NCBI GenBank assembly: GCA_973895155.1
Contig: OZ316892.1
Location: forward strand, 18,528,357-18,592,356
Reading direction: 5' to 3'
From: Marsupella aquatica
Taxonomy: Eukaryota; Plantae; Marchantiophyta
Length of the DNA: 64,000 nt
The notes below the pieces were generated by a model. It was not told the DNA's origin, searched no databases, and saw nothing but the letters and a program-made list of their open reading frames with translations. A program made the translations under genes and the position numbers. Shown here piece after piece: positions 8,758-64,000 of the stretch (within the stretch, counting starts at the first letter, position 1; the number at the start of each line of letters is the position of its first letter).

Positions 8758-8827
8758 GAGGCACGGAATCACTATCCTCCCCTGAAAATCTGGGAGGCAC
8801 GGAATCGATATCCCTCCCTGAAAATCG
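8758..8827. repeat. 2 x 36-bp direct repeat upstream of the phosphoglycerate mutase gene
   Basis: gaggcacggaatc...tatcc..ccctgaaaatc repeated twice. Confidence 0.7.
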
Positions 8828-38260: not shown

Positions 38261-39069
38261 GGCTGTCAACAAACAGAAGGGGCGGCAATCTTGCAGCACC
38301 TTCAACAGTTCCTGCAAAAAATAAATGGCATGAAAGAGCATAGTCGTGTGGCATCAGCCAATGCCTCGCTCCTGAAGAAGTTGCAGTGGGAGAGGCTCGC
38401 GCACAAGCACTCGAAGGTGAGGGCTTTGCTAACTCGTGAGGCCTCAGCCAAAGCCTCGGTCCCAAAGAAGCTGTAGTGGGAGAGGCTCAATTCTGCACTT
38501 TGTGATTCGATTGGCGACCCTAAGGACCAGAGGCTGAAGGAGTTTGGAGTGCTCACGGGCCAGCCGAAGACCATCAAGTAGGCGTAGGAGGTGCTACCCA
38601 ACTGGATTGAGCTCGAGGCAACGGAAACGTTCCTCAAGGCAATGTTCAAAGCTATCAAAAAAAAGGTCTCTAAGACTGTGGTCCTCACCGTCGACGTTAT
38701 GTACCAGGCTGTGAACCAATTCGGGACCAAGGTGGCACTAGTAGAAACCGGGGCAATTTAGACCAAACCTTATAGGACTAAGGCCACTAAGTCCTTTTTT
38801 GCAACTTCAAATGACTCAAAACCATTGCACCAGTTCACATGAACACTACAAAAGACTGTGAGTGCTTTTTGGTTTAGGATAAGACTATCAAAAGTTTCCA
38901 CGTACCCTAGTTTGTGAAAGGGTGAACACTCTCACACATGATGGTTGTGGGGTTTAGTTGTCAACTTTAATTTGATAATGGCCATATGGGGGGACTTTAC
39001 GTCCCGCTATATTGAACACGTACAAACTCAGTAAATGTCTAAATGCCCTAATGTCTCATAAACTCCATA

Positions 39070-41660: not shown

Positions 41661-41886
41661 GCTGGAGTTTTGTTCCTCTATGTGCTTTGTTGTGTTAGCT
41701 TTGTTTGTTGTGATCTGTCTTACCCTACTGGTTTTACACTCTACGATCCGACTTCATTCCCTACAAATAAATGGACATGACACTATCTTTGCTGGAGTTT
41801 TGTTGGTCTAGCTCTGTGCTTTGTTTGCTGTGATCGGTCTTACCCTGTTGAGTACTAGTTTTGCACCCTGTGATCCAACTTCATTG
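41661..41886. repeat. Diverged direct duplication (~130-bp period)
   Basis: gctggagttttgtt...tgtgctttgtt...tgtgatc.gtcttaccct...gatcc.acttcatt occurs twice. Confidence 0.65.
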
Positions 41887-43456
41887 CCCCGGTGATTTTC
41901 TCTATCTCTATCCTCTACATTCAGCTTGCGGGTGGGTTTGTTATGATTTGATTGGGTGACTGATTGTTTTGGAGTTGTAGCCGTGGTCAAACGCACTTCT
42001 ATTAAAAACAAGTTCATGTAGCTCAGGTTGCTATTGTATATAAAGTGCAGCAGGATCTAGAACTGCTTGTAGTCCCAGCAAATCATACATGCTACAATCA
42101 CAGGATATGACTTCAATAAGTCTTCACAGTTTCTCATTTTTGTAGAATCTGAGATGTTGCTGGCCCAGGAGATGAGTTTCCCTTAAGAGTCAGGGACATC
42201 AGCAGTGTGGGCCATGTAATACAGTTGAGAATGATGGCAAGTATAATTTTTTAATGGGTCCAATGCCATGTTTGTGAGCTACTGAGTTGGATATAGGAGA
42301 AAATTACCAAAACATTATCGCAACTGCTTCCAGAACAATCATTCGTGGTTAGACTAAGCTCGGCTGAACACCCCTTGCTTGCATGGGACGGACACAATGC
42401 GGAATAGGCTGTCATGGAGTTGTCAAATGGATCTTCAATTTTCATGAGAAATGTCCTGGGTTTCCGTCCTATGTGTAGATTTCAGAATTAGAACGAAACT
42501 ACTATTAAGAATACTGTACTTAGCAATTCTTCTTTTCCTGTGAAGACATTGCCGCAAATGTTTCCTTGAGTTCCTGTCATACCAGTGTTTCCCATGCCAT
42601 TTTCAGCAACTACTGACGGAGTTGGCACCGTAAGTTTAAATGTATAGCTCTCATTACTTCAATCCAAAATTCTATGTAAACAGACATGAAGTAGCCTTTG
42701 TGCTTAATTGCTATGTAGCATCTGACTGCTTAAATTGCACTGCTTAAATACGTCAGACGGGGATTTTATGGATTGCGGAACCTACTGTCCAAGTATGTTG
42801 TAGTGGTCATCTTGCGCAGCTCAATGAGTCAATTTCATTTTCCCTGTGCACTTCTATTTCTCAGAGAATTCCCTTGTCATGCTCATTTCCCCCAGAGTTA
42901 GGAAACAAAGAAGAAGAGCTGACTAATTGTAATTCCAATCCATATCCTGATCGGTCAAGGATTGTGAACTACATTGGCCTTGTCATTGGCCGAGGTCACC
43001 AAATTTTGCTTGGTTTCATTCCTGTGGAGCACTGTTGTGATGGATGAATAGTTGTCGTAGCATTCTGCAAACTCTCACGGTTTGCTTATGGCCATTATTT
43101 GCAATTTGCTGCTACTAATATGTCTCCGACTGAGCAGCATACACCAGAAGTAAGCAATAGTGGAGGTTTAACTGCACATCAACACATCTAGTGAACTACC
43201 TCTCTGCTGCTCACTGGAGGGTGAGACTTCCACTATTTCTGGATATTGTAGTTTGTAAGCAAGTTGATTAAGAGTGTTTCATGCTATGTTTACATTGTGA
43301 CCCCTAGCTGGAACCAATGGAATGACACAGTGAGTGGGAACTGATAATTTAAGGTTGGTTGCTGTTGGTGAGGCAAGTACAGCTCCTGCTCACCTTGCTG
43401 ATCGAAGGTGCTTATCAGAGGACGTGAACACACAACACTCCACAAAAGCAACACTT

Positions 43457-43906
43457 ATGGTGAGGACCCGCAATGCTGAACATGTGCGGCTTGCACGCAA
43501 GGCAGAGATGTTGCGCCTTGAGTATGTCAGACTTGGGATCCTTCCAGCCCAGTCTGCATGGTACTTTGAGTACCCAATTGTTGCCAGGAATAACTACAGC
43601 CGCCCTGTACCTGCTTCTCCACCCTTCCCAACATCCTTGGTATTTTTGTCTCTCATACATGACCCGCCACAAATTAGGGCCCAAGGGTGTGTGCACAGTT
43701 GCCAGTATGACTGTCCTGCTTGTAGGGCTTCTGGCCTAGAGTTGGATGACCGTTCTCTTGGATGTCAGTTTTTTCACAGAGCACAATGTATCATCTGGAA
43801 CCACTCGCCATCCTGCAGTGTGCCTGGCGATGTCACTTGTCCTGCCCTCCCAGACCCCACCACCGGTCACTTTGGTGTCTACACATGTTTGGATCACACG
43901 CTGTAG
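43457..43906 (+). CDS. Cys/His-rich orphan protein (149 aa), transposon cargo; paralog of 61006-61455
   Basis: MVRTRNAEHVRLARKAEML...CVHSCQYDCPAC...; same length as the paralog, 13 aa differences by my count, no frameshift. Confidence 0.65.
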   Translation: MVRTRNAEHVRLARKAEMLRLEYVRLGILPAQSAWYFEYPIVARNNYSRPVPASPPFPTSLVFLSLIHDPPQIRAQGCVHSCQYDCPACRASGLELDDRSLGCQFFHRAQCIIWNHSPSCSVPGDVTCPALPDPTTGHFGVYTCLDHTL

Positions 43907-44575
43907 AAGACCACTTGTCACACCGCATGCACAGACCAGAGACCATTGACCTATAACTTAACACTTTGACTTGAACAGAGAGGATATTTACTTAAGATTT
44001 TGAATTATGAGCAATTTTGGGTCCAGGGTTTACGGTCAACAGTACATAACTTATCCTATTATGGCTGCACTAAGTACAATATCCTAATTTAAGAGGCTAG
44101 CAAGCTCACTTAAAAGTTTCCTTTCAAAGACTGGAATTAATGGGCCATGTGATAACCTGGAAAAAGTGATTTATGCCTAACTTATTTGTCTCATTCACTA
44201 TCATAGCCTATTTAGGATGTATAAATTACAACCCTGATCACACTGCTTGATACCAATCCTGTTCAAAAAATGCCTGTTTTACATGTCACGACTGTTATAT
44301 GTGATTCAAATGCATTAAATCTTGTTGCAGATCTCCTTTGGTGAATCATAGCCACAAAATTGAGGTGTAGGTGGAGCTATTGTACGAGGGGATCAGTTTT
44401 TAGTGTGGGCTCAACAAACCAAAAAGTATGTCTACTCTGCACATGTGTGTGAACATTTCATTGCAGTAGCAATTGCCACTCTAGTCTATATGCTACACTG
44501 TACTTTTTGTACACTGCACTAAATTGTATTGTCTGTGCACTCTGCTAAATTGTACTATCTGTCTCATGCGTAGGC

Positions 44576-44727
44576 ATGGCACGCCCTAAAATCCGAGCCA
44601 AGAAGCGGGGGATAGAGGTGAGCAACACAGGTGTAGTTGGGCCAGATGGTAGTAACTTCTCCGCAAGTCAGATTTTCCAGAAGGCAGCTCATTGTTGTGC
44701 CATTTGTGACGATGGTGGTGGCTTAGC
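44576..44727 (+). pseudogene. Truncated EDM2-like PHD ORF interrupted by an insertion
   Basis: MARPKIRAKKRG...HCCAICDDGGGL matches the 60235 ORF, then switches abruptly to a CTCGGGGG terminus at 44728. Confidence 0.85.
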
Positions 44728-45259
44728 CTCGGGGGTCTCACTCCGCGAAAATCTCATATCACGTGCGACGAAGTATAGGGTCCGTTAATTGGGTTTCTCG
44801 GAAGACTTAAGAAGATTTGTGTAAGAACAATAGGGCCAACTTTATATGTTGGACAACTTGTAAGAATAATAGGGATATTAATATTTTTGACTTTGTAGAT
44901 GGAAGGCATACAAAGAAGTTAGGGGGTCTTTGTGTCGGACTATGTAAAGTACACGTGTCACTATGTCATTGGTACACATGGCACACATAACATTCCCAAT
45001 ATATTTTCCTAATTTTTCTAATATGTTAACATGGCAAGAATTTGAGAATGATCTGGTTTTATGGGGACTCACGTTTAGGGTTTGACCGGGATTAAGTTTG
45101 AATTTTTCTATTTAATGTGTCTCGTTTACCTCAATTGGCCCTTGTCAGTCTCCTCCCGTGTCGTTTCCCTCCACTATCCCTTTGGCCCCACCCGCTCTTT
45201 GCCTCAACAGAGTCTCTTTTGTTTGTACCTTGCAGCAAATGGTCTAAACGGGGTCTAAA

Positions 45260-46100: not shown

Positions 46101-46354
46101 TTGTGCTCCGGGAGGTGGGTGTCGAGAGTGTTGCTGCTAGCTTGCTGAAACGGGAGGTGGCTACTACAGGGAGTGTTGCAATATCTCAAACCGGAGTGCC
46201 AGGATTGGAGCTGCATTGCTGCGTTGCTCAATCGGGAGGTAGGCGCTGCCTACTTTGACGATCGTACTTGCTTGCTTGCTACTATTTGACGCCCAAATCT
46301 ATCACGCATGGCACACCTAGAGTCGATCTGGTAGCGGTCATAGACGAGAAGCAC

Positions 46355-46470
46355 CTGATCTGCCCGTTTAGCTTTTCAGCTATAAAATTCCTGTTCTGAG
46401 CTCCGTGAATGGCGATAAGCTCTTTGAGTATTTTGTCCTCCAGAGCTCGCCATGCCCTCGCAGATAAGGT
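46355..46470 (-). pseudogene. Captured fragment of an R2R3-MYB first repeat (subgroup-21-like)
   Basis: SARAWRALEDKILKELIAIHGAQNRNFIAEKLNG vs canonical ARGHWRPAEDEKLKELVALYGPQNWNLIAEKLEGRSG; small indels; ends at ag|gtgc donor at the usual GRSG intron position. Confidence 0.7.
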
Positions 46471-47308
46471 TTGGAGCCACTGCTGAGATCCAGCTCCAAC
46501 TTCCCAGCCGAATACTAGCTCAGTATTGTCGTCATTTGTCTCGACGTTGTCCATACTCATCTCTCCTTCTGTGTCCGCATCGACGACTTGACGCACATGT
46601 TTTTTGGATGCATCGTTAGAGTAACCGCGAGTACAGGTCTCCAATGATTGCACTTGCCATGATTGACCACCTTACATGATCTCCATCCGTGGGCTGGACC
46701 CCAGGAAAAAAATCTTGTAACTTGACTTCTGTCGTCCCCCACACACCCGCACAAATCTGGTTCTCTATTACATGCCTTGGTGTCCCGTTGGCTGGTTCCT
46801 GCAATTTTCTTTAAGTCATCTAGAAGAGAAGACTTCTTTAAGTGTTTACTCAGCCAGGGGGGACCACAGCCTCCAGCCATACTGGGTGGCGGGCCTGGTC
46901 AAGACGTGGATGACGCTCGTGCTTGATTTTAAATTCTCTTTTGTTTCTCAAGCTTCTGGGCAAGGGCATTACCATTCTGGATTCTGAACTTGATCCTATT
47001 CAGGTTAGCTATTCAGGTCTGTTGAGCGATTGGGTTATTATTTTATTGCTGTAGTAACATGCATGGCCAATTGGTTGTCTTCATGTAATGGGAAGTTTTT
47101 GAAACTTAGAAATTGAATGGTGGTTTCAATTTTGTTCACAGGTTGCAAAAGGAATTGTAGAGGTTGTCATCAGCGCTTGCAGCAGTGAGCACCAACACTT
47201 GCGGTGAAGCAGTTTGCTAGAACACATAGTGTACCTAGTGAATTGTAAGTTGCCTGTCATTGCACGTCTAATCGTCTGGCCATTCACCGAGTATAAAAAA
47301 ATAGTGCC

Positions 47309-47707
47309 ATGGCTATATTGGGCATTACATTAGAAGCGAATTATGAGAAGCTCCTTCTGCAGCATCCAGATGAATGCTGTTGGTGTGAACCTTGTGTCAA
47401 GTGCAGGGTTGGTGATGGGAATTTTGAATGGTTCCATTGCTTCTGCTTGAAAATGCGTGGAAGGCTTGTTACTAGGACATACATGGGAAAGCATGGCAAA
47501 GTTGTCACACGTCGTTGGAAGTGCTCTTGTATAAGGCCAACCATTTGGCCTCAAAATGAGTGTCTTTTACGCAAGATTGTCATCCCGGACACGCTTGACA
47601 TTGTAGTCCCTGATAGTATTCCACATTCAACTGAGCTTGATATTGTAGCCCCAGATAGTATTCCAGATCAAGCTAAGGTTACAACCCATGGATGCTTGAC
47701 ATTGTAG
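47309..47707 (+). CDS. Cys-rich orphan ORF (132 aa) upstream of the PHD ORF
   Basis: CCWCEPCVKC...HCFC...CSC; C-terminal LDIVxPDSIP repeats. Confidence 0.4.
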   Translation: MAILGITLEANYEKLLLQHPDECCWCEPCVKCRVGDGNFEWFHCFCLKMRGRLVTRTYMGKHGKVVTRRWKCSCIRPTIWPQNECLLRKIVIPDTLDIVVPDSIPHSTELDIVAPDSIPDQAKVTTHGCLTL

Positions 47708-48023
47708 TCCCTGATAGTACATGGATGCGTTGTTCATATATGACTAGGCCTTTGTTTGCAAGGCTGCAATTGTACCATCCATGATATATGAGAATATTTT
47801 TCATTCCCATTATGTGGCAAAGTTTTGCAAGCTGGCATTGTATTTATGTATGTCTTGGTTGGTGGGTGTTCAGGTTGCACTGTGTAGTTGACTTCATCTG
47901 GGAGGGAGGTTTGCAGATCATTGGAGCAGGTGCTATGATTAACCTTATCTTTGTCTATGGATTGCTCACTATCATCATGTCCCCCTCATATGTGATGTGC
48001 TTTGTGATGATTGCAGTTGAACC

Positions 48024-48698
48024 ATGCCGACAAGGACTTCAAACATAAAGAAAGCAACACAGTCCTCTGACAGAGGAGCCTCTTTGGAAGAGGTATTGTG
48101 TATTCCGTTGTTCTCTGAGCAAGAGATTCTACAAACTAGCCCTCATGTTTGTGCAATTTGTGAGCATGGTGGGAAGTTGGTAATTTGTGATGGGCCATGT
48201 CACAGGCAATTTCATTATGTGGTTGGAGATGAAGCCCCTAATGACTCTTGCCCCTGTGTAGTCCTTCCCCTCCATCATGGAGGGAAGCCATGGTTTTGCC
48301 CAAATTGTAACCAGGACCAGGCCATGTGTTATGGGTGCCGCACTGTGGGACCGTCACCTACAATTGTGCGAAAATGCTCTGATCGTTTTTGTGTACGATT
48401 TTATTGCTTTGGGTGTTTGGTAGCTGATGCAAAGTCCTGCCCACTGCATACATGTGTGACATGTTATCAGAGTCTTGAGGGTCAGATGGTCAAGAACATG
48501 GTACAATGTCTACGATGTCCAAATGCCTGGCATACAGATTGTCTCCAGATGATCAAAAGCAAAGGGTTCGCTCATGATAGGGACATCTGGGACCATGAAG
48601 CACATGGACAACAGCGACAGATGTTTTATTGCCCCCGTCATCCTATTGATCCACACCTCAAGACTCCAATCAGGGACCACATTTCATGGCTCCAGTGA
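48024..48698 (+). CDS. Stand-alone EDM2-like composite PHD-finger protein (224 aa)
   Basis: CAICEHGGKLVICDGPCHRQFH...WFCPNC...CYGC...CPLHTCVTC...CLRCPNAWHTDCL...FYCPRHPIDPHLKTPIRDHI; intact, intronless, acceptor ttgcag just upstream of the ATG. Confidence 0.85.
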   Translation: MPTRTSNIKKATQSSDRGASLEEVLCIPLFSEQEILQTSPHVCAICEHGGKLVICDGPCHRQFHYVVGDEAPNDSCPCVVLPLHHGGKPWFCPNCNQDQAMCYGCRTVGPSPTIVRKCSDRFCVRFYCFGCLVADAKSCPLHTCVTCYQSLEGQMVKNMVQCLRCPNAWHTDCLQMIKSKGFAHDRDIWDHEAHGQQRQMFYCPRHPIDPHLKTPIRDHISWLQ

Positions 48699-49204
48699 TC
48701 TGAATAATGAACAAACCTATTACTTAGGTTTCAACGTCTTAGTGGGGTATGAGCAAGGCACATACTTAAGGTGCATCATGGGTGGTAGTACCCAATTTTA
48801 TTAGTGTTGACATTTTGTCATAATTAAGGTCACTAATAGTGCTGTATTTTGATGAGCAGAAGCACTAAACTTCGGGAATTGTTAGAAAAGCAGGCGAAAA
48901 GGATATTTTGTCCAAAGATATTTTATCCAACTTTAGCGGTATATCATGATTTTCACTGAATACATTTGCATGTATGATGGATTGCATTATAAAGTGTTTT
49001 GGCCTATTAGCACTTCTATTGTTAAATGTATGCTGACATTATGTACATTACATGAGAATGTGTATGTTGTCATTGCATCTCTTGAAGATCCTAATGTGTT
49101 TCCCTTGTGTGTATTTCAAATGTATTTGTGCAGGTCTCCACCTCTTACACATTGTGGACTAATTTTGTTGGTGATGCTGAGCAACTAGCTAGTGTGGCTG
49201 GTTT

Positions 49205-49560
49205 CACTAGAAGAATCCGAGGTGAACTGAGACCGCAATATATGACTCATTTTGGCTCATGTGACTTCATTGTGACTCAACGTGACTTGACCCACGCTGT
49301 GACCCTTGGAGTTGCAAAAGTTGAGACCAAAAAATGGAAGTCACTATTGATACTGGGCTTTGCAACTTGCTTGATACCCATTTGTGACTGATCTGTGACT
49401 TTATTGTGGAGTCTAGCCTTGTTTCGACGTGACTGCAATATGACTTCAGCGAGTCACATCGTAAATCACATACATGACTTACCCGCATTCAACAACGACT
49501 AGCGTGTGACTATTTAGTGTCACAGGAGAGACCAATGGAGACCCTGGCCCGCGTCACACA
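49205..49560. repeat. CACTA terminal inverted repeat and subterminal repeat region
   Basis: ttt|CACTAGAAGAATCC followed by more than ten tgtgac/gtcac motifs in both orientations. Confidence 0.8.
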
Positions 49561-50059
49561 ACAGAACCATTTGGGACTCTATATACTCATGTTTATAACT
49601 AATAAGGATCACATGCAAGTTATAACCATGACTAATGAACACAGAGGGACAGTTCATAAGAAGAGAGAGCACTCGACATTACAATACATAGAAACCTGAT
49701 GTTCTAACTTTAGAAATATAACACATTGAATACAAGAAATGAACATAGCATGAATGACATCCACATGAAACAAAGCATCATATAAGCAGATCCTACATAA
49801 AACATTCATAAGAATTAAACACAATCACAATCTTGCTAAAAAATGAAGATCATTTGAATTCCAATGGAATAGTTTACAATGTGATCAATGTAATTTAGAC
49901 AAAACAGGAACTCATAATTGATGACTGTAGGATGAGATAACTGAAAGCACATGCATGATACTATGAATCTCCAAGAGGACATGATTCTTGTACTGTTTCT
50001 TGACATCTAAAATCTACATAACATGACTCACACTACAAACAAATAATGGCATGACATTG

Positions 50060-53000
50060 TTATGGATCCTCTATGAACTTGCTTGGCCATAATACCAAAG
50101 AACCTGCAGCATCTCCAAGTGTCTTTTGAGGAGGATCATCATTTGTGTTTGGAATGGGAAGGACAGCTTTAGGTTTCACTAGTAATGTGACTAACACTAC
50201 TGAATAACCTGGGGGAATCCTCTTGCCATGGAACGTTGTGGAACCAACCTGCACTCTGGCAAATCCTACTCGTGTTCCACTCTCATCAACAGCTAACAAG
50301 CCACTTTGTCCCTCAGCATTAGGTGCTTTCCCCACTTCCACCTTAGATCTTTCTGCCAGCACTGTTCTTGGAGGTTTGTATGAAACCTTTGACGTGGCTC
50401 TGCTCCCACCAGCAGACTTGCTTCGTGTGCGCATGCTTCCTCTCTTCACAGTAGTGAAGCTAGGCTCAGTAGGTTCCTCTGTTAGGACTGTCACAGTAGC
50501 AGGTTCATCACCTGGGAGTGTCATACCAACTAACTCTTTGGTTGGATTTATCTCAACAAGAGGCACACCTGTCATTGAGAATGATACATTCTGCAAATCA
50601 TTTATCTCTGCAATGGAGTCAAGATCTACATAGCATGAATCTGGCTCAATGGTATCATTGTCATGCTTGCTGATATCCTCATTTGCCCCAACATTGATAT
50701 CATCCACTCCCTTGCCAATGTCATCCTCATCCAAACATGGTTGACTGCCCTCTGTCAAACAAGTTGCTTGTACAGACTGCAACTTTGTTGCCTCTAAATT
50801 ACAGCGAGTATTTGCCAGGTTCTCATACTTCTTCTCTGTAGCACCTGTCTTATTCTCTATGGACACAACAACCACAATATATGTTACTGAAAATAACACA
50901 TTCAACAAACAATGTCAATTCAAACTATACATTTAATAATCATATCCCACACAGTTGTAAAGGCCTTACCTTCAAGCCTACATGTCGTTGGCATGCCAGA
51001 AGAGTGCATCGACTTTGCCACCTCAAGTGGTGATGGTGGAACTCCTGCAGAATTGGAATCAATTTTATCTCTCACCGACACAACAGCTTCCATTAATGTC
51101 TTGAAGTTCACATGGAACAAGTCAGTCAATGAATTCAAACGTTCATTGATCTCTGGAAGACATGTTTCGACAGCCTTCAAACGACCACTTATCTCTGTAA
51201 GTGAAGATCCACCTCCCTACATGACACAGGGGTATAGGTTCAATCACTCCATATGAAATGTTGGGCAATATATGCACAATCAATGTTATATACAGTGTAC
51301 ACCTGAAATTCAACGCAGGTCATTCAATTACCAATCAGAACTCATATAACTTACATGCTTGGAGGATTCAGATGCACCCTCTTGAGCCCGGGTGTTCACA
51401 ATTTCAGCCCTCAACTCTTCTTTTGAAGGGCTTTGCCCCAATTGGGCTTTCTGCACATGCATGGCAAACACAAGTTATCGATCAATATTCAGGGAACGTA
51501 CACTAAAAAACAAAGTTTACATGTAGGGACAGTACACTAAAAAATAGTACATAGTGTAGCATAAATTACATAGCTAGGCCATTCATTCTTACCAAACGTT
51601 TAGCTGTCGGTGCAGTGCCGGTCCTTCCTGTCAGATTAGGGTTCTGAACACTCAACCTGGCCTCGGTCATCTGTGAACTCTTCTTTTTTGAAGCATCTGT
51701 TACAAAATAAGCTACTAACCTTGCCCACACTTTATCATCACAACTGGCTGGTGGAGGCATATCTGGCTTCTCCCCACCTTCCTTCCAAGCCTTATGCATT
51801 CTCCACCTCTCTTGCTTGATAATTTTACCTGCTGTACTCTCTAGGCAACCTATGTCCACGCCATCATCACTGCCCACATAATTCCATTTGGCAGCAACAT
51901 TTTCACATACAGTCTTCCAATCTTTTGGATGCTGTTTTTTAAAATTAATAACACTCACATCTAACCAACGCAATACTTCAGCTTTCAAATCAGCATGCCA
52001 TCGGTTCTTGCGAGGACACTCAGCATCCACCCATTGTCTCTCATTCAACTTTACGTTCCCTTTCTTTGTCACCTCCCCTCGTGCACTGCTCTCGGTAGTA
52101 CTGGGCGTTGTATTGGCCACCCCTTCATTCACCCTACCTGGGGTTCTGAAGCCACCTGGGAAAATACAATGCCATTCATGCTTGAGAACTACATATAGCA
52201 GAATGGATGACGGCAACATTCAATGCTTCACTTCAAGAAAAATTCTTCAAACATACATACCTGTAGCTCTGCCTGTAGATGCCTGTGCAGGGACTGCACT
52301 CTGAAATTGTTGCGACCCTGGACCACCTGTCCAGCCTAGTACAGGGGCCGGATGATGTCACTTTCTAGGTATGTGTGTGCAAACATATGTACTGAAAACT
52401 AAGTACAAACTGTAGGAAAACAACTGAACATTCACCGACATACCTGTCCCCCTTCCGTGCTGCATCTGCATAGGGGCATTAGTGAATACTTGAGTCGATG
52501 GTTCGACTGTCCAACCTGCACACATACATTTTCTATCATTATACATGTGCAGAGTCCCCCCCACGTGAATGGACTCCACATATAATGAGTTCTTCCATTG
52601 CTGACAAGATCAGACATTACCTGCTCCTCTTCCAGCGTTTGTAGGTACTGAATTTTGATATCCCTGCCAATTACCTTCACCACCTTCCCAACCTTGTTCA
52701 TTCCACGACCCACCACCATCCTCCCAACCTGGTTCAACCCATGTCTGTCCTTGTGGACATTGGAACTGATCATTACTAGCATTTGCCCAATCAGGTTGGG
52801 CAGAATCTGCATGCAATGGCAGGTGGACAGAATTTCATGTTGTCTGAATCCAATACATCCCAAACAATGTCAAAAATTGATATGCAGTCTGAAATTCAGG
52901 AGTGCCATGCCTTCACAAAGAACTGGCATATAGATATATACTCACATCCCCACGGTTGAGGTGGACGTCCATACCCACGAGATTGTGGGTTTGGACCTGC

Positions 53001-53767
53001 TCTGCCTCTACCACGGGCATAACCTAGAGCTTGCCCCCTGCCATAGTATTGGGCACCAGCCTGGGATCTACCACTACTACCACCTCGCCAACCTTGATCA
53101 GAGGTCAGCCCCCCCTGCTGGTATGGTGCATGCACAGGCTTCGAAGGCAAAACAGAACTGGCAGGACGCTGCATCACATCACCAACTACAATGTCAGGAA
53201 CTAAGCAAGGTACATATGTGTAGTACTGAACATATGAAACCTCTAAACAAGAGTTTTTAACTCAAAACCTTGTTGGGAAAACTACTTACATGTTTCTTTT
53301 GGGGCTGCTCTGCAATGTATTCATCTTCATAACCCCCATCCTCATCCATTTCCTCTGGAAAATACTCATCATCTGCATCTTCTTGTCTAGTGTCTGCACC
53401 CACCTGTGCAGCATCAATGTCATCTCCACATTCTGCCATTGTAGGTACGACCTTCTTGCTCAACCTGTCACTCCGACGCACAGGCCCAGAGATAGTGCTG
53501 GTCACCCTTCTTGCGTACTCCTTTTGTTTCTTTGAAAATGCTGTGGCTCTGCGACATTCCAATATGAGAATACAGTCACAATTTCAGTGCCACATTGAAC
53601 TATTCATGTCACACAAACTCAGCGGAGGGGTGTAGTTGAGAATCGTTCCCTTACAATTCAGCCACATCCTTTTCCAGATCCAGTTCTGCGATTTTGGCTT
53701 TCACGTATGCTCGTTGTTCCATAGCTTTCCTTTCATACTCACACATCTCTGTGTCACTCTGTTCCAT
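50060..53767 (-). CDS. TnpA-like multi-exon protein (Ptta/En-Spm Transposase_24 and Tnp1/Transposase_23-like domains)
   Basis: ATG at 53767 after tag|g; exons 53767-53655 and 53548-53290 splice in frame; PPPASCDDKVWARLVAYF...KKSSQMTEAR...TGRTG; C-terminal FHGKRIPPGYSVVLV...LPIP...TLGDAAGSLVLWP; internal exons only partly resolved. Confidence 0.8.
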
Positions 53768-53923
53768 CCTACTGGACCACAAAAACATGTCATCTATGGT
53801 CACCCCGTATAACACAATGCAACCACAATCACCAGGCATCCATCCATACATCTGTGTTGCTTCAGAATTACTTTATTACACATCCTTCCCCTCACTAATG
53901 TCTATGCAAACAATTCACATTAC

Positions 53924-56900
53924 TCATGGCACAGGCACACTGTTGGCATCTGCATCTCTGAATTCGCCTCCTTCAGCAAATGCATCTACCCTTGTCACAG
54001 GAATGAAGTCCCCGCTATCATGAACTACAGGCACTTGGTCTGAACGCCGACGATCAAAGGCACTATGAGAGTGTAAATGAAACTCAAGGTTTGATCCTTC
54101 CATCCGGCGTTGCCTGGCCTGTTTATGACACACTACACGCCAACCTGGGGAGTCTTCCACATCCAGGAAGAAAGCTTGCTCCACCTGACTAGGAAACACA
54201 AATGGCTCAGACCATTCGGGCAATTTCCCTCTGAAATTGGCCAGCAAGAAACCGTCGTTGTCTCTCTTCATGGTAGCCCTGTTACCAAGCCAATCCTGCC
54301 GCACCCATGAACCTTTCATAAGAATCACAGGACTGGACACCGCCCCATAGTCCAGAGCCCATATGTCAACTAATTCTCCCACATATCCCATCTCCATCCA
54401 GGCCCTGTCGTGATTGTGGCTCTGTTGCTCAAATACAGTGATGAGCCCGCAGTCATTCGTCACCCTGTAGGCACTGTCACCATCCTTCACTCGGAAGTGA
54501 TTCCCATATGCTCTCATCCGTTTGTAAGTCTTCACTTTCAGGCTAGGGGCATTAGACAGTAGGTAAACATCTGCATCCATGTCTGGGTGGGTCTCGTGAT
54601 GCTCTCTAATTGCCACTCTGATCCACTCCATGAAACCTGGAAAAGTTGTTCCTGCAGTGGGATGGGCCGCCTTCAATGACTCATACTCCCTGAACGAACA
54701 ACCACACAGCATTAGCTTGGGTAAACATGAACAGGCTGAAGGAGAAAACCACACGAACACAACATTTAAGCTCATGAACTGGATTATAGCACATGTATGC
54801 ACTCACTGTATCCAGGGTTCCATCACCACAGTGTTGTGCAATACAAAGTCATGTGCCAAGTCTCTCATAGATATGGTCAGGTTCTTTGTGGTTGCAGCCC
54901 CTTCCAGTACTTCACCTACCACCCCTTCCTCCTCATCAGAATTCCACACCCTGGTCTTCACATGCTCATATTGTGCTATGTATTCGGTCAGAAATCCCAG
55001 AGTCTCATCCTTGATGTAACCTTTAGCCATGCTTGCTTCAGGTTTGTAATATGTTCTCACGTGACCTTTGAGTAGCTTCATGTACCGTTCCAAAGGGTAC
55101 AACCAACGAGCACTCACAGGCCCAAATTGGTGTAGCTCTTCCACAACATGGACAAGTAGGTGGGTCATGACATCAAAAAATGCGGGAGGAAAATAAATCT
55201 CCAGGTCACACAGCACCTGAGCGACATCTTCTGTCAGTTGTGGGAAGTGTGTTTCATCCCAAACCTTCACACAAATACGACGAAACACATCACTGAGTCG
55301 CATGATCACAGTACGAACAGGCTTCTGCAACAGGCCCCTCAGGCATAAAGGCAACACCTGTTGCATCAACATATGGTAGTCATGGCTTTTCATACTACCA
55401 AGCTTTCTAGTCATGATATGCTTCTTGAAAGCACTGCCATAGTTTGAAGGAACCTTCAAAGAACTCAACCTCTGCACAAATAGTTCCCACTCTGTGTCTG
55501 TCAGAACATAGGGCGCTTGGTACTTCAAGAGCACATCAGCTCTGTGGGCATGTGGCCTCAACCAAAGATGGGGTTTCATTCCCCTCTGTTCAAGATCCAA
55601 TCTCACTGAACCAGTGTCTTTCTCTCCACACAAGAATCTGAGTAGACTCTCACAAATATTCTTTTCAATGTGCATAACATCAATGTTATGTTTGCTTGGC
55701 TCAAACTCCTGCATCGTTGCAATGCAAAAGCGTCAGGAAATGCCTCAAGTTTAGTCTCTCTCTTCGAAATGAATGCACATGCTCTGAACCAAAACATGTA
55801 TCCCAATTAGCATCAACTCCAAGAGGCTTACCCTCCAGTACTTGAGCTCCAAGTCCAATATGCTCAGTCTTTTTACACCATATCGCTTTATTGGATCACT
55901 CACTCCATCTTCCCTGCCCCCTCGTTTGATATAGTCATCCCTCAGTGCTCCCCACTGCCTGATCTCCTCTTTGGTCACTCGTGCCGGGGGTCCACGTTGC
56001 TCAATCTCATTGCCAAAGTGTGCAATCAGTGCCTGTCTTTCTCTGTAAGGGTGATCTGTCTTCAGAAAACGACGATGGCCCATGTATATCACTTTCTGCA
56101 GGGCTCTGGAGTACTCACTGGTGACATTGCGCCCACAGATAGTACAAGCACAATATCCTTTTGTTGTTTGGCCTGATATCATCCCATGGGCTGGGTAGTC
56201 AGCTATAGTCAGAATGACAATGGCTCTAAGGATGAATGGGTTTAACCTCCCAAGCCTCTGTAGGACATCATATGTGAGAACTCCTTCCTCCCAAAGCTTT
56301 CTCAATTCCTCCACTAGGGGAGCCAGAAACACATCTATGTTGGCAGATACAGCACTGTCTGGCCCTGGTATCAGTAGGACCATCAGAACAAAAAATCGCT
56401 TTGTAGTCATCCAAGGAGGAAGGTTATAATTCAAAATAGTTACAGGCCAGCATGAAAATTTGTTGTTCTTGTCTCCAAATGGGTTTACCCCATCCAATGA
56501 CAGCCCAAGTCTGACATTCCTCGGCTCAGCAGCAAATTCGGGATACATCTCATCTATGAGTTTCCATTGCCTTGAATCTGCAGCATGTCGTTGTAGCCCA
56601 TCATCACTTTTCTTGTCAGTTGCCCAAGTCATCATCTCCGAGATGGCACGGCTTCTGAACATCCGCTGAAGTCTGGGAATGAGTGGAAAATGACGAAGTA
56701 CCTTGGCGGGAACCATAGACTTTCCTGAGTTCCGATACCTGTGCTTCCCACACTTAGGGCATGTCAACGATTCTTTATACTCCTTTCTGAAAAGAACATG
56801 CCCATCAGGACAGGCATGGATCGAATCATAGTTCAATCCAAGATTAGATATGCATCTTTTTGCCTCGTACATGTTCTTGGGCAAAATATTACCATCTGGT

Positions 56901-57655
56901 AGCACAGTTGTTCGCAAGAATGCCAACAACTCAGAAACCAAAACGTTGGGGACATTGTGGTTGCCGCAAATGTTCAGGAACATGATGACAAATCCCAGTT
57001 TAGAACATTTGCTACCGGGGTACAAAGACTTCCTGCCTTCCTGTATTTGCAGGGGAGAGCCAAACATCCCATCATGCCCAGGGGTTTCCTGCCCTATCTC
57101 AAACTCATCAAGAGGCTCTTCGACAGGGGGCACACTTGCATCTGCAGCCGTATCCTCTTCATTGTCCAGCCCATCATGAAATGCATCCAAGTCTTGGAAG
57201 ATGTCTCTCACCATCTCTTCCACATGAATTCCTTCGTCACGTGGTGCTGCCTGAGCACCATCCCGTTGGAGAGCTGACAACCCACAGAGACCAGCTACAA
57301 CATTTTCAAATGCACCAGGCAGAACCTCACTTGCCCGTCTTGCAGCATTGGCAGCATCAAATTCTAACCTCCACTCCTCGTCGGAAGAATCTTCCTCTGC
57401 AGGATCATTCCAAACTCGATGTCGTGGATCTCTTCCATGAACCGCGATATGCCGCCAAACCTCATTCAGACCCCTGGTACGGGATCCTTGGCAGATTGCA
57501 CAAGGACATCTCATCCTACTGGCTCCTGAAAGTCTGGTTCGTAACCTTTCACGCTGCCAAAGCTTATTATCATGGCGTGATATCCTTGTGGGATGATGCA
57601 AAGGCAGTGCCTGTGCCCTGGGCTGGGTCTGGGGAGGGTGGTGACCAGGGTGCAT
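53924..57655 (-). CDS. TnpD-type CACTA DDE transposase, apparently intact; exons 57655-55832, 55708-54807, 54689-53924 (~1160 aa)
   Basis: CPCAIC..HIAVHG; IHACPDG...CPKC; KVLRHFPLIPRLQRMF; RNVRLGLSLDGVNPF; TIADYPA; IDVMHIEKN; MKSHDYH; FPPAFFDVMTHLLVH...WLYPLERY; EPFVFPSQVEQAFF; GT-AG introns keep the frame. Confidence 0.93.
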
Positions 57656-58088
57656 TGTAACAGGCTGGGAGCTCTGCAGTCATGGACAGCAGTGAACAAG
57701 GATGCCTAATGGTGGTATTTGTGTTCCATATATCCCTGACTGTATCTGCCAAAAGAGTTAACATAACGTGTACTAAATTCTCACAAACCCTAAACCACCC
57801 CAAAAGAAAAAAACAGGTTCGCAAGTAGTGTACCTATTGTCAAGTGAATGACACAAAATTTCTAAATGTTGGAGGGTGTCACCACCTCCTCCGCTGTCCT
57901 CAAATGTACCGCCTCTGCATGTACGTTTACAGTGACACCCCCAGGCAGCAGGAAACAACAATCCGCCAACAGTAAAATAAGCCCAACTGCCACCAACCAT
58001 AACAAGGTACATTAGTTCAAAGATCACATTTATTTCAATGATCTGATTTATACAAAAAAACTTGTGTCCAAACTGATGCTACTACTCC

Positions 58089-58961
58089 TCACTCTGATTC
58101 AGAATCGCTAATGACCCATTCCTCACTTGTTGTCTCATAGTCCTCTCTGTAAGGATCCTGACCCTTCCGTGGCCAGGCCTCAAAAAGATCATAGTCCATT
58201 GGGTTTTGACGCTTCCCAGCTGCTACTGATTCCACAAGCCAAGCATATGAAACCACAAACACATTATGGGACATGACATAAAAGCGAATGTCTCCCTTCC
58301 CAAACTTGCGGCAGGCTTTGGGATATGACTTAGTAATGACATGAGTGGTGTCCTCTGTTATATTCTCCTCCACTGTCCCACCTAGGTCAAGCACTGTGGA
58401 CTTGTACACTTTGCACTTAACCTCTCCAATTCCCGCCTCCACAAATACCATGCTCAGCCCTTTCAGAATGGGGGTTGGTTGCTTCGTCTCCTCAGCCAAC
58501 ATACTCTTCAGCCTTGTAGAGCTCTGTCCTTTGTTGAGTACAGGTCCATATTGGAGATCAGCAAGCCGTGCCTTTGCTTCCCAGACTTCTTGTTCAGCCC
58601 AAGCTGATGCAGTAGCTTCTTCATCCTCCCACAACTCATATTGCTCAGTATCCTGTACAATCTTATGTGCTATGGAATCTGTGATCCAAGAGGCCTCAAC
58701 TACTTTTAGGCCTTGCTTAGTAATTGCAGAATTCATGTAGGACCATGACCACTTCTTTATCACTGATAGCCATGTCCCTGCAACAACATGTGTAGTCTCT
58801 GGAGTGATGTCCTGAACTACAGTGCCATGGAGCTCAGAGAATCGTTTCTGTACAGTTGGCCAATGCACTTTGGTCAACCCATGCTGGCCATGGACCAAAA
58901 TCGCTCTGACCCCTGTAAACACTGCTGGGTGGTCACACTTTCTACGTTTACCAGGCTCCAT
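58089..58961 (-). CDS. Tandem BRCT-domain protein (transposon cargo)
   Basis: Two repeats: FTGV...HGTVVQDITPETTHVV...VVEASWITDSI...EQYEL and LKGL...LGGTVEENITEDTTHVI...VVSYAWLVESVAAGKRQNPMDYDL, with BRCT GG/THV/W-x-x-x-S hallmarks. Confidence 0.85.
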   Translation of the reverse strand: MEPGKRRKCDHPAVFTGVRAILVHGQHGLTKVHWPTVQKRFSELHGTVVQDITPETTHVVAGTWLSVIKKWSWSYMNSAITKQGLKVVEASWITDSIAHKIVQDTEQYELWEDEEATASAWAEQEVWEAKARLADLQYGPVLNKGQSSTRLKSMLAEETKQPTPILKGLSMVFVEAGIGEVKCKVYKSTVLDLGGTVEENITEDTTHVITKSYPKACRKFGKGDIRFYVMSHNVFVVSYAWLVESVAAGKRQNPMDYDLFEAWPRKGQDPYREDYETTSEEWVISDSESE

Positions 58962-59554
58962 GTACACACACCCTACGTGATGACAGTGAATTTTGGAAGA
59001 ATGGGTTCACCTGACAATACAAGGACAACAAAATTCCTGCTTTTTGAGTTGATCTGGCCCACTGGTGCTCAGGTCCGATTTTGATAGGTACAAGGGATAT
59101 GTCACACAATACGTACTAGGCACCTGCACGGATGCAGGACATTGTTTGAATATATACTACAAAATCCATATCCGTGGTGAAATGAAGTGCAACCAACTTG
59201 TCATGGCACATACATATTTTGTTGTAAAGGAGGATACATTCAATGACAAACTTATAGGGCAATTTGATTAATTGCATGCCTGATAATTTATACGCTTACA
59301 ACTTAGAAGTCCTGTTTTAATTTAGCAGTGTGATGAAAGTGTTTATGAAAATGACCACTCAGCCTAAATACTTCCAAGAAGGCTTGTAAGGATAAGTTTG
59401 TATAGGCATGTACCCAGCCACTGACGCCAGAGCACAAGATAAGTGCTGCCTATATAAACTCGCCTACCCAACTCCTTTTCAAAATTGGAATCTCTGCAAT
59501 CTCAAAAAATAGTACATCCACATCAGGTGCACTGTGCATGTACAATGTTCAGCT

Positions 59555-60235
59555 TCACAGCCAAGATATGTGATCTCTCACAGGAGTGCGCGAGGTAGGA
59601 TCAATGGCATGGCGATGACAATAAAATATCCATCGATCAACACCATGTGCAGAGTGATCATAGATTTCTCTGTCACAAGCATAACCCTCTGCTTGATGAT
59701 CTTTCAGGCAATGATAGTGCCACATAGTGGGACACCTAGCACAGTGGACTATGTCAGTCCAGTAGTCATCATCATGCTCACCACATGCCTTGCACCTATG
59801 AAGTGGGCAAGCTGTGGCATGAGCAGGCAAACACTCAAAACAGAAAAATCTCACACAAAAACGGTCTGGACATTTCCTAACATTTGCTGCAGCATCAACA
59901 GAGCCCTCATAGGACCCCAACTTCCCACACTGTGCACACTTAGCCTGCTTCTCCAAACAATCAGTGCACATCCAGTCTCCCTGGTGTGTTGACGGGAGGC
60001 CCACCCCTGGACAGTTGTTTTCTGCAGCAAGGTCAGACTCCGGGTTGAGGTGGAAATGCCTCATGCAAGGGCCCTCACAAATGACCAGGCCCCCACCATC
60101 GTCACAAATGGCACAACAATGAGCTGCCTTCTGGAAAATCTGACTTGCAGAGAAGTTAGTAGCATCTGCCCCAAGTACACCTGTGTTTCTCACCTCTGTC
60201 ACACGCTTTTTGGCTTGAATTTTAGGCCGTGCCAT
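59555..60235 (-). CDS. Stand-alone EDM2-like composite PHD-finger protein (226 aa)
   Basis: CAICDDGGGLVICEGPCMRHFH...WMCTDC...CAQCGKLGS...CPLHRCKAC...CARCPTMWHYHCL...FYCHRHAIDPTSRTPVRDHI; basic N-terminus (possible NLS). Confidence 0.88.
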   Translation of the reverse strand: MARPKIQAKKRVTEVRNTGVLGADATNFSASQIFQKAAHCCAICDDGGGLVICEGPCMRHFHLNPESDLAAENNCPGVGLPSTHQGDWMCTDCLEKQAKCAQCGKLGSYEGSVDAAANVRKCPDRFCVRFFCFECLPAHATACPLHRCKACGEHDDDYWTDIVHCARCPTMWHYHCLKDHQAEGYACDREIYDHSAHGVDRWIFYCHRHAIDPTSRTPVRDHISWL

Positions 60236-60248
60236 GCCTGCGCATGAG

Positions 60249-60390
60249 ATAGACTCTACAATTTAGCAGACTGCACAGAAAGTAATATATATTTAGCATT
60301 TAAGGTACAAAGGCATTTAGATAGACTCTACAATTTAGCAGACTGCACAGAAAGTAAAATATATTTAGCATTTAAGGTACAAAGGCATTT
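60249..60390. repeat. Tandem duplication, 2 x ~71 bp
   Basis: atagactctacaatttagcagactgcacagaaagtaa...aaggtacaaaggcattt occurs twice. Confidence 0.85.
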
Positions 60391-61005
60391 GCTACTGCAA
60401 TGAATTGGAATGGCCACACAAGGATGCAGAGCACACATACTTTTGGTATGTTGAGCCCACACACAAAACTGATCCCCTAATACAATTTCTCCACCAACAC
60501 CTCAATTTTAATTGTGGCTATGATTCACCAAAGGAGATCTGCAACAACATTTCATGCATTTGAATCACATACAATAGTCGTGACATGTAAAACAGGCATT
60601 CTTCGAAGAGGATTGGTATGAAGCAGTGTCATAAGGGTTGAAATTTATACATCCTAAATAGGTTATGATAGTGGCTGAGACAAATAAGTGAGGCATAAAT
60701 CATTTTGCATATTATCACATGGCCCATTAATTCATTCAACGTTGCAATGTTCACCAGGTTAAAGCAGTCATGAAAGCAGTCTTTCAATAGAGACTTTTAT
60801 GCGAGTTTGCTAGCCTCTTAAATTAGGATATTTTGCTTAGTGCAGGCATAATAGGATATAAGTTATATACTGTTGACCCTAAACCCTGGACCCAAAATTG
60901 CTCATACATCAAAATTTTAAGTAAATATCCTCTGTGTTGAAGTCAGAGTGTTAAGCTATAGGTCAATGGTATCTGGTCTGTGCATGCGGTGTGACAAGTG
61001 GTCCT

Positions 61006-61455
61006 CTAGAGCATGTGATCCAAACATGTGTAGACACCAAAGTCACCGGTGGTGGGGTCTGGGAGGGCAGGACAAGTGACATCACCAGGCACACTGCAGG
61101 ATGGCGAGTGGTTCCAAATGATACATTGTGCTCTATGCAAAAATCGGCATCCAAGAGAACGGTCATCCAATTCTGGGCCAGAAGCCCTACAGGCAGGACA
61201 GTCATATTGGCAACTGTGTACACACCCTTGGCACCTAATTTGTGGCGGGTCATGTACAAGAGACACAAATACCAAGGATGTCGGGAAGGGTACTGAAGCA
61301 AGTAGAGGCCGGCTGTAGTTGTTCCTGGAAACAACAGGGTACTCAAAGTACCATGCAGACTGGGCTGGAAGGATCCCAAGTCTGACATACTCAAGGCGCA
61401 ACATCTCTGCCTTGCGTGCAAGTCGCACATGTTCAGCGTTGCGGGTCCTCACCAT
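61006..61455 (-). CDS. Cys/His-rich orphan protein (149 aa), transposon cargo
   Basis: CQGCVHSCQYDCPAC...C...H...C...H...C...C...CLDH; conserved paralog at 43457-43906. Confidence 0.65.
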   Translation of the reverse strand: MVRTRNAEHVRLARKAEMLRLEYVRLGILPAQSAWYFEYPVVSRNNYSRPLLASVPFPTSLVFVSLVHDPPQIRCQGCVHSCQYDCPACRASGPELDDRSLGCRFLHRAQCIIWNHSPSCSVPGDVTCPALPDPTTGDFGVYTCLDHML

Positions 61456-62450
61456 AAGTGTTGCTTTTGTTGTGATGTCCTCTGTTCACGTCCTTTGATG
61501 AGCAAGGTGAGCAGGAGGTCGACTTGCCTCGCCAACAGCAACCACCTAAACTAATCAGTTCCCACTCAACTACAGGTCATAGTATACACATAGCATGAAA
61601 CGTGCATAGTACATATTTGATTCTGAGTTTATGAGTTTCCTAAGACAAAGAGCTTGGTGATAAACCCATATTCTCGATGGACATGTATATCAATCGTATT
61701 AAAATCCTGTTTTTTCATCCAGAAAGACCGAAAGTCTCACCTTGCAGGTTGCAGCAGAGAGAAAATTCACTGGTTGTCGTGTTGTGCAAGTGAACCTCCA
61801 CTGATGCCCCCGGTGTAGCCCCTCAGATGCAGGTGACACTTACCAACTCCCAAGTTGCCTGGTCTAACAGAAAATGCTTATATCTTCAGAACTTTATAGA
61901 GCAAGTACATGATCACATACTTCTGGATCTATTCATATTTGGAACTCTTGCCAACTACAACTCCCATTATGCACAAGCTCACATCAACAGAGAAAAATAC
62001 AGAATGCATACTTACTATGGCTCTAAGCACCTTCACTACCTTGTTGAACCCAGTCCTGAAGTCTTTTCAGCGTGTTTGTTGTGCTGTCTCCTTTGGCACC
62101 CAACACCTTAGTCCTTGATGTAACAGAATGCGATTTTACAAGTTAGATGCTTTGGAACCTTCTATGGTCTTAGCTGAATTGATGTCATCGTAAGTGGTGA
62201 AAGACAAGGAAGACGAAAGCTGGTTGAAGAGCTGTGGACAACACACTAGCATGAAGTGCTTCAACCAATCCACTGCCAAACGGAACTCTTACACAGTCAC
62301 ATTCTTTCAGTAAACAGAAACTCAATCAAACTTCATAATCAAAGTACAGACTCTGAAGGACCAAAGGAGGATGTTGTGAGTTTCTCTGTTGTTTAATGTG
62401 TTACCCTTCTAGTTTCGAAGTTAGCAAATGCTGAATAATGTGTCTACCAG

Positions 62451-62790
62451 ATCTTCAAAAAGAAGCCCACCACAATTAAGAACTTTGGTATCTGGGTGAG
62501 GTATCAGAGTTGTACAGGTTATCCCAACATGTACAAGAAATATTGTGATACCACATTAAACAACCACACAGCAGATGTATGATGAGATGGCTTCTTGTCA
62601 TAGAGTTCGGTTCCCTTGCATCCAGATCATCAAGACTACGACAGTCCCTGTCTCTCTGTGCAAGCGAGAAAGTACCAAGCAGTTCCATGATTCAAAGATC
62701 AAGTTCCCCTTGACGTACCGCAAGATTCAACCTCCATCGCGAAAGCTAAAGACGACTTACAAGGCCACCAAGCCCAACACATTTGTTTGA
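62451..62790 (+). pseudogene. RPL18A: 60S ribosomal protein L18a (eL20) last-exon pseudogene fragment
   Basis: cag|[29 protein letters not shown]...(frameshift)...[22 protein letters not shown]...[18 protein letters not shown]...[15 protein letters not shown]; conserved Arg codons changed to Cys (CGT->TGT); upstream exons not found. Confidence 0.88.
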
Positions 62791-64000
62791 GTAGTGCGGG
62801 TGTAGGTTCCCAATTTTGAAACAATTTGGCTCATTTTATGTCCCGAGGGACTCCAGGAGTTTATGTATTGAGTTTCTAGGTCAAGATGCTTAATATAAGG
62901 AAATTCAATTATCACCTCGTTCCCAACTTCTATTAATTGAATATACACAAGCTGGAAGCAAGAAGACAAGCCACAATCTAGCATCTTAGCCAAACACAAT
63001 CGTCCCGACAAAGCAAAACTCAGCTGGACAGAAGTCACTCGGATCCACAAAAAATTGAAGATTCACCTCCAAGCCGGAGGCCGATCACTTCAGTACAGCA
63101 GCTTCTGGACGGAACAAACTCTGCTCAGCCCCACAAAAACACAAATGTTAAGGCTCCAAGTCAGAGCTCACAAACAGAAACTCAGATAAATAACATTCAA
63201 AATCTGTCCAGGTTTGTGCAAAGTGTACATATTCATTCTTCTGGAATGAACACGCAATGCATACATCGCCTAGACACAGTCATTATAAATCATTGGGCAA
63301 TTGGGGACCACTAAGCAGGTGTGTTCCTATTTCGAGGCTACAAGAAAGGATAGAGTGACACCAAACTGAAGAGTACACCAAAAGAAAAACAGCAAGAACC
63401 AAAGTCAATCATGTGTGGATATTTTGCACATGGGAAGTTCCCCTGAAGAAGCACCAGTTGCTAACATTGTCACCCGAACCACACCCAGTTTATTACCTCA
63501 ATGTCTTCAGCCTCAATATCCAATCCTCAGCCCCCTGGTGCTTCCGTGTTTGTTCTGAAAATTTCTGTGATGAAATAATTATTCAATACATTCAATAGCA
63601 AAGAGAACTCAATCACAAAAGAAAAATAGTTAGTGTGAATGCTAATTTCTCAACACTTAACTAAATTCAAACCACCAATTCAAGTAGTAAGTTTCAAAAA
63701 CTTGCCTTTACATGAAGAGAAACCAATTGGCCATGCATGTTACTAAAGCAATAAACAAATAATTAGGCTCAACCCCGGGCTCAACACACAGGCAAACTAC
63801 TCGAAACATGCTGCTGAGAAGTAACATTTTTTGAATGTCAGACTATGTGTAAGTGCCATGATCGTGCTCCTACGTTTCACAAGGAGGGCTGGCCCGAAAG
63901 GGAGAAGCAACAATGTGGAGTCTATACACGTAGCACAAATCCCAGTTTAGAAGGGTGGATGAAGTTCAGACAAGAGTTCAGAACTTGCCATTTGAGATTG

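Follow-up and report, generated by a model that had tools for sequence, protein, structure and literature searches.

An apparently autonomous CACTA transposon with an old accessory cassette that includes an EDM2-derived histone-reader module

How does an activated CACTA element produce long, spliced transcripts through a body that retains methylation of histone H3 at lysine 9 (H3K9me)? The known anti-silencing factors of transposons (VANC, TnpA and TET/JBP) act on DNA methylation. In Arabidopsis, TnpA is reported to demethylate the termini of Spm only, and both H3K9me and internal DNA methylation stay on the activated element (bioRxiv 10.64898/2026.08.24.746577). The question is raised by a 64,000 nt stretch of contig OZ316892.1 (termed the window; all positions are window coordinates), in which the transposase genes tnpD and tnpA of a CACTA element are preceded by three open reading frames (ORFs) for a PHD, a BRCT and a Cys-rich protein. 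All genes of the element lie on the minus strand (Table 1). We find that the element is real and apparently autonomous, and that its accessory cassette is old, is selected and contains a histone-reader module derived from plant EDM2. Such a captured and selected reader would offer a small, testable answer, a single protein of 226 amino acids (aa).

The identity of the PHD ORF emerged from profile searches. Pfam matched it to NSD-type PHD models below the cut-off (E 5e-5 to 4e-3), and a word-based search, which returned nothing longer, gave the impression of a protein without longer relatives. This impression was overturned by a profile made from seven stand-alone PHD homologs, which produced 703 matches at E<=0.001 among 1.84 billion representatives. 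Many of the 150 matches listed are proteins of 1000-1400 aa that are matched near residues 220-430. When ten long matches were looked up, three proved to belong to clusters named ENHANCED DOWNY MILDEW 2, one of them with Arabidopsis EDM2 itself, and seven were unnamed or ‘PHD-type’ plant proteins. Liverwort paralogs of the EDM2 family also stand among the top profile matches.

The element protein aligns to residues 225-432 of Arabidopsis EDM2 with 30% identity (pairwise E 2e-27), and the alignment includes the tail after the last PHD finger, which is found in EDM2 and in the element protein and is absent from NSD-like rows. Of the 26 columns in which six host proteins of the EDM2 family have Cys or His throughout, the element protein keeps such a residue in 25. 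The ORF therefore carries the 2.5-repeat atypical PHD module of the EDM2 family together with its C-terminal tail. An AlphaFold model (pLDDT 86.5) has PZP and NSD PHD histone readers as its best fold matches, and searches of the PDB returned no structure of the EDM2 module; with its high-confidence fold, the protein could serve as a minimal model of that module. Host EDM2 shows a DNMT1-RFD domain. Pfam found neither this N-terminal RFD domain nor the C-terminal, methyltransferase-like ELP domain in the 226 aa ORF, which ends right after the tail. For this reason we regard the ORF as an EDM2-derived module, that is, by sequence the PHD module of plant EDM2 without its other domains, and not as an EDM2 ortholog. 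An earlier reading of the DNA letters alone (the sequence-only reading) had named the PHD protein a chromatin reader. That claim now has a specific source, and histone binding itself is predicted from sequence.

A tree of 60 rows chosen from 156 usable ones, rooted on three NSD-like rows, bears on the age of the capture. Its bootstrap is not fully settled, and the group labels of rows that were not looked up are our guesses. Thirteen stand-alone rows group as a single clade (99/95) with a long stem (0.9), nested inside a 47-row EDM2 clade (99/98). The stand-alone clade falls outside the angiosperm group (88/96), and the tree does not resolve its sister group. The length of the stem argues that the capture is old. 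The PHD-only genes that grasses and Marchantia have as host genes lie apart from the stand-alone clade, among angiosperm or liverwort host proteins, which indicates that truncation to the PHD module occurred more than once.

The element around this module has the parts expected of a CACTA transposon. TnpD matches Transposase_21 (E 2e-70) and DUF4218 (5e-28), and DUF4216 below its curated cut-off (1e-4). The TnpA assignment draws on a Transposase_24 match, also below the curated cut-off (E 1.5e-4), on one exon of a gene that sits after tnpD. For both genes the splicing is predicted, with GT-AG introns of 105-142 nt picked by eye. The C-terminus of TnpA (50060-50300, minus strand) has no Pfam match; it presumably resembles the small beta-barrel region of plant TnpA proteins. 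TnpA-like domains have been stated to be confined to flowering plants (PMC13547354), a statement that would need revision if the host is a non-seed plant.

The five ORFs start where the sequence-only reading had placed them (the higher coordinates in Table 1), all in one orientation, and the terminus with subterminal repeats that it described is present. Specifically, the CACTA 12-mer occurs exactly once in the window, at 49205, and the 400 bp after it hold 12 GTGAC/GTCAC motifs, compared with a window mean of 0.9 per 400 bp. Neither a matching 5′ terminal inverted repeat (TIR) nor a target-site duplication was found in the window, including 61.6-64 kb for the TIR, so that the CACTA motif is seen at one end only and we infer the enclosure of the cargo within the element. 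The proposed element end at 61602 falls short: similarity to a second cassette copy (copy 2) reaches 61802, and raised contig depth reaches approximately 63.4 kb. In this upstream region, 63659-63762 matches 47035-47136 with 87% identity. The ratio of observed to expected CpG is 0.23-0.40 across the element genes (49205-64000) versus 0.62 at 9-13 kb, and CHG sites show no depletion; such low CpG is consistent with long-term CG methylation.

Public sequencing runs indicate that the cargo belongs to the transposon. Eleven runs were listed, of which nine contain part of the stretch and none is recorded as RNA, a count that has no bearing on expression. We compared the four best, which come from three studies and one of which may be the source of the window; they placed 687-13,540 contigs each, many at 90-99% identity to the window. 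Summed contig depth, which is not a copy count, rises several-fold at 49205 in all four runs, stays high through TnpA, TnpD, BRCT, PHD and Cys-rich ORFs, and drops between 61.7 and 63.4 kb. In run X1, single contigs have a depth of 1641 at the BRCT start and 1554-1782 in TnpD, compared with 224 in the left flank. A contig of 1381 nt in run X6, which comes from another study, differs at 69 letters and joins the start of TnpD to most of the BRCT ORF. The depth, these single contigs and the many variant copies argue that the cargo does not consist of single-copy host genes; as the sequence-only reading had supposed, it travels with the transposase genes. The 1381 nt contig has the depth of TnpD (186 versus 183), whereas the PHD and Cys-rich bins of X6 are several-fold deeper. 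This difference, together with copy 2, suggests that the PHD-Cys pair is probably common to more subfamilies than BRCT. Runs X7, X8 and X9 contain near-identical low-depth pieces of 151 nt, possibly carry-over, which we do not take as a sign that other organisms have the sequence. When metagenome contigs were scanned with the BRCT and PHD alignments, and viral contigs with that of PHD, no locus could be confirmed.

The cargo is very probably real and selected. Its ORFs are uninterrupted in the main element, as had been claimed, and intronless full-length homologs, with ligands intact and ends shared, still occur at 37-82% identity for PHD and 54-60% for BRCT. The Cys-rich ORF differs from its counterpart in copy 2 by 18 synonymous and 15 non-synonymous changes, giving a ratio of non-synonymous to synonymous rates (dN/dS) of 0.23 (Fisher p 1e-4). 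In the other frames of this region the ratio is 0.78-1.28, apart from 0.25 in the antisense frame with the same third positions. The PHD start gives 0.26 (p 0.011) over the 50 surviving codons. Purifying selection, which the sequence-only reading had proposed to look for in the cargo, is thus seen for the Cys-rich ORF and the start of PHD; BRCT is not among these. Indels were taken from 24 displayed rows of 128, which gave 21 distinct positions; two outside the element were dropped, and of the 19 tested none lies in a cargo ORF and one lies in TnpA. The displayed substitutions (80 of approximately 1330 rows, a small and biased sample) are 4 synonymous and 2 non-synonymous for the Cys-rich ORF, 7 and 3 for TnpD, and 2 and 2 for TnpA. 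The Cys-rich protein is an orphan, with no Pfam match and no Atlas match and with low language-model recognition (1281), and selection is its only support.

The simplest use for the captured module would be to sustain expression of the element within its own heterochromatin, because EDM2 favours distal polyadenylation, H3K9me stays on activated Spm, and tnpD and tnpA lie behind three ORFs with AATAAA-like signals. EDM2 PHD fingers are reported to bind H3K9me2, and the ASI1-AIPP1-EDM2 complex to suppress proximal and favour distal polyadenylation in heterochromatic genes and repeats (PMC7472560, PMC7529245). AATAAA-like signals are present in all four spacers between the ORFs of the element. 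We tentatively propose, at a little under an even chance, that the EDM2-derived module binds H3K9me2 nucleosomes on the element itself and thereby helps to keep TnpD and TnpA expressed. TnpA would open the termini, and the reader would handle the still-methylated 12 kb body, either favouring read-through past the poly(A)-like signals or shielding the mark from readers that act in silencing. The BRCT and Cys-rich proteins would probably be partners, or would act at excision and repair. A common-leader splicing model has mixed support. The candidate leader exon (61.74-61.80 kb) has no ATG in the PHD frame and contains a stop in copy 2. When acceptors upstream of each ATG were scored, the fraction of 429 background ATGs that match the score was 0% for BRCT, 8% for TnpD, 20% for TnpA, 31% for PHD and 63% for Cys-rich.

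Several observations weigh against this use of the module. EDM2 itself is reported to act both ways on transposons, promoting COPIA4 and repressing Mu1 (PMC3632883). An element module that lacks the RFD and ELP domains may be unable to act as EDM2 does, and its mark specificity may have changed, because the acidic stretch before the first finger of EDM2 is replaced. The displayed substitutions are near the neutral ratio for BRCT and for PHD (2 synonymous and 4 non-synonymous each), and deletion joints through the cassette occur in other runs. PHD-only EDM2-like genes also exist as host genes, in grasses and Marchantia. Furthermore, CACTA context is established only for the three PHD copies of the window among the stand-alone rows, the others being on contigs of up to 13 kb or of a length that was not looked up.

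The cassette might instead serve transposition, with the PHD protein tethering the transpososome to chosen chromatin and the BRCT pair bringing factors of end-joining or of the checkpoint to the breaks made at excision and insertion. We consider this unlikely, although it is the best placed of the rivals. The BRCT ORF has a Pfam match in two stretches (E 2e-13) whose repeats are 25% identical to each other, and weak PDB matches (E ~1e-3) lead to LIG4, BRCA1, Rtt107 and Rad4/TOPBP1. The depth of BRCT and its contig in X6 suggest that it tracks the transposase-bearing subfamily, and the CACTA end adjoins other cassette copies in the window. However, homolog and PDB searches found no BRCT donor, and the PHD module derives from a factor of RNA processing and silencing that is not known to act in integration. 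The phosphopeptide pocket can be compared with BRCA1, for which we take the positions to be Ser/Thr-Gly and Lys in the first repeat with tight packing between repeats. In the first repeat of the three homologs the Ser site holds H, P or S and the alignment to BRCA1 has no Lys; at these positions the pocket residues of the first repeat are not conserved. The second repeat has the aligned Lys, the linker is approximately 50 aa, and the structural model (pLDDT 36.5) is unusable. A likeness to plant DNA polymerase lambda was set aside; no polymerase lambda chain is among the PDB matches. The description of BRCT as ‘repair-interacting’ derives from the BRCT label.

Somewhat less probable again is that the PHD protein is mainly a decoy, whose N-terminus mimics the H3 tail to absorb writers or readers of H3K4 and H3K9 or to gate its own fingers, with the module competing against host EDM2. 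The protein starts M-A-R-P-K-I-Q-A-K-K, which matches the H3 tail at A1, R2, K4, A7 and K9. Of 1706 9-mers that start with Met in the window, only 2 reach five matches, and the element PHD and copy 2 score five each. Among the 18 stand-alone rows whose N-terminus is usable, 10 start M-[A/T]-R-x-K (nine at the first Met), including pairs only 35-40% identical, compared with 3 of 167 other retrieved proteins. All three (P0040, P0044 and P0081) are short EDM2-like proteins with the PHD part only, two of them named from the grass Eleusine, and they start M-A-R-x-K, possibly by convergence with the transposon-borne clade. Nevertheless, the motif is missing from the other eight rows, including the copy at 48024, and a basic nuclear localisation signal could explain part of the pattern. 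The start may also be inherited, because full-length liverwort (non-seed-plant) EDM2-family proteins begin M-A-R, and an AG 2 nt before the PHD ATG leaves room for an upstream coding exon. A PDB search with the first 30 residues gave no match.

Least probable is that the ORFs are passive captured passengers, or are kept for the benefit of the host, with no use to the element: capture of host DNA by Pack-CACTA elements is well known (PMC13317346), and the truncated PHD of copy 2, the near-neutral displayed variants and the poor recognition of the Cys-rich ORF would fit, yet the persistence of intact ORFs, the dN/dS of 0.23-0.26 and the old capture implied by the long stem argue against it.

A larger version of the expression reading would combine several of these features. 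Here, an old CACTA lineage, placed outside the EDM2 clade of angiosperms, would have taken its reader module from a host anti-silencing RNA-processing complex and added an H3-tail mimic, yielding a three-protein toolkit (a reader-decoy, a BRCT adaptor and a new zinc-binding protein) for transcription and repair inside heterochromatin. We hold this to be doubtful, though somewhat less so than the rivals above; if true, it would mean transposon-encoded histone mimicry together with a hijack of ASI1-AIPP1-EDM2.

Other cassette copies lie outside the 49205 terminus. Copy 2, whose span is also given as 43331-44722, is 83% identical to the main cassette over 1496 nt. The sequence-only reading had two cargo ORFs recurring there in the same order; the order and the Cys-rich ORF stand, and the PHD ORF stops after 50 codons. 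The repeat end that cuts it at approximately 44728 occurs three times with ~75% identity (also at 36312-36466 and 24861-24970). The insertion after copy 2 holds an array of degenerate 35-44 nt tandem repeats (45130-46120), followed by a weak Myb match (46285-46671). Just upstream of the PHD ORF at 48024, in the same relative place as in the cassette, is another Cys-rich ORF (47297-47707, plus strand, also given as 47309), which has no detectable similarity to the cassette Cys-rich ORF. TGG precedes the CACTA-like terminus at 38736, and CTAGTG followed by TGG stands at 49189-49197, just before the main terminus. These marks (38733-49197) may delimit a 10.5 kb non-autonomous element holding copy 2 and the 48024 PHD; the chance expectation is 0.06, the TIR match is 6 bp only, and no subterminal repeats are present there.

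Elsewhere in the window, a broken pogo/Tc5-type transposase (36906-38353, minus strand) has CENP-B N-terminal, HTH_Tnp_Tc5 and DDE_1 Pfam matches in three frames. The segments at 19.0-24.3 kb and 29.5-34.2 kb form a direct duplication with ~10 kb spacing and 90-99% identity per block, with a weak homeodomain match at 31173. At ~9-12.3 kb on the plus strand there is probably a spliced host gene, a member of the histidine phosphatase (phosphoglycerate mutase-like) family.

Table 1. Features of the CACTA element and its neighbouring copies (window coordinates)
Position	Strand	Feature	Basis
38736..38747	+	Second CACTA-like terminus; lies 4.7 kb upstream of copy 2 and may be its 5′ end	Motif search
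43331..44728	+	Second cassette copy (copy 2): intact Cys-rich ORF (43457-43906), PHD ORF (from 44576) cut after 50 codons	Alignment
48024..48698	+	Diverged complete stand-alone EDM2-type PHD ORF, 224 aa, 46% identical to element PHD, outside the 49205 terminus	Pfam, alignment, tree
49205..49604	.	3′ terminus: CACTA terminal motif (49205-49216) and GTGAC/GTCAC subterminal repeats in both orientations	Motif search, contig depth
50060..53767	-	TnpA-like gene, 10 predicted exons, 872 aa, no internal stop	Exon model; Transposase_24 on one exon
53924..57655	-	TnpD transposase, 3 predicted exons, 1163 aa, no internal stop	Pfam and exon model
58089..58961	-	Two-BRCT protein, 290 aa, repeats ~50 residues apart	Pfam, alignment, X6 contig
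59555..60235	-	Stand-alone EDM2-derived PHD module, 226 aa, H3-tail-like N-terminus	Profile search, alignment, tree, model
61006..61455	-	Cys-rich orphan ORF, 149 aa	dN/dS versus copy 2
61717..61802	-	Candidate non-coding leader exon; copy 2 has the conserved block at 43159-43244, and both have a splice-donor-like site (61740 here)	Alignment, predicted
61803..64000	-	Upstream region, probably still element	Depth tapers 61.7 to 63.4 kb

What appears to be new here, judging from sequence comparison, is the EDM2 origin of the PHD ORF and the cargo combination; transposon-borne chromatin factors as such were already known. Among papers judged by title and the start of the abstract, none describes the combination, as the sequence-only reading had supposed; supplementary tables, Repbase and most subscription papers lie outside this search. 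A search for CACTA, PHD finger and EDM2 together matched work on host EDM2 only. The companion statement that En/Spm elements are limited to TnpA, TnpD and ULP proteases is too narrow, because fungal EnSpm families are reported to carry TET/JBP genes (PMC12730594).

Among known systems, the plant En/Spm elements (Arabidopsis EN/SPM2, 5, 6 and 9) share the CACTA terminus, the subterminal repeats and the head-to-tail arrangement of TnpD followed by TnpA; the element described here adds three conserved ORFs upstream of tnpD, and no PHD, BRCT or EDM2 product appears in the main text of that account (PMC13547354). EDM2 and the ASI1-AIPP1-EDM2 complex provide a homologous PHD module with the same C-terminal tail and ligand residues. 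Unlike EDM2, the element module has no RFD or ELP domain and no introns in its ORF, has the acidic stretch before the first finger replaced and one helix-bearing insert deleted, starts with a basic, H3-like N-terminus, and is borne on a transposon. The PHD-only EDM2-like host genes (rice Os03g0266600 and Marchantia MARPO_0172s0021) resemble it in having the EDM2 PHD module without the large C-terminal domain, but do not belong to the stand-alone clade.

The Pfam scan gave no VANC-type match for any cargo ORF, VANC itself not being compared directly. VANC of the VANDAL Mutator elements is nevertheless a close parallel, as an accessory gene that was probably captured from a host chromatin regulator (MAIN in the case of VANC) and kept by the element (PMC13547354, PMC13317346). 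VANC is reported to recognise DNA motifs and to cause hypomethylation, whereas the part captured here would be a histone reader. A similar relation holds for the fungal DNA transposons with TET/JBP genes, including EnSpm and Plavaka, which are transposons of the CMC clade with an epigenetic factor thought to aid escape from silencing (PMC12730594). In fungi this factor is a methylcytosine enzyme, and in the plant element it would be a reader of histones.

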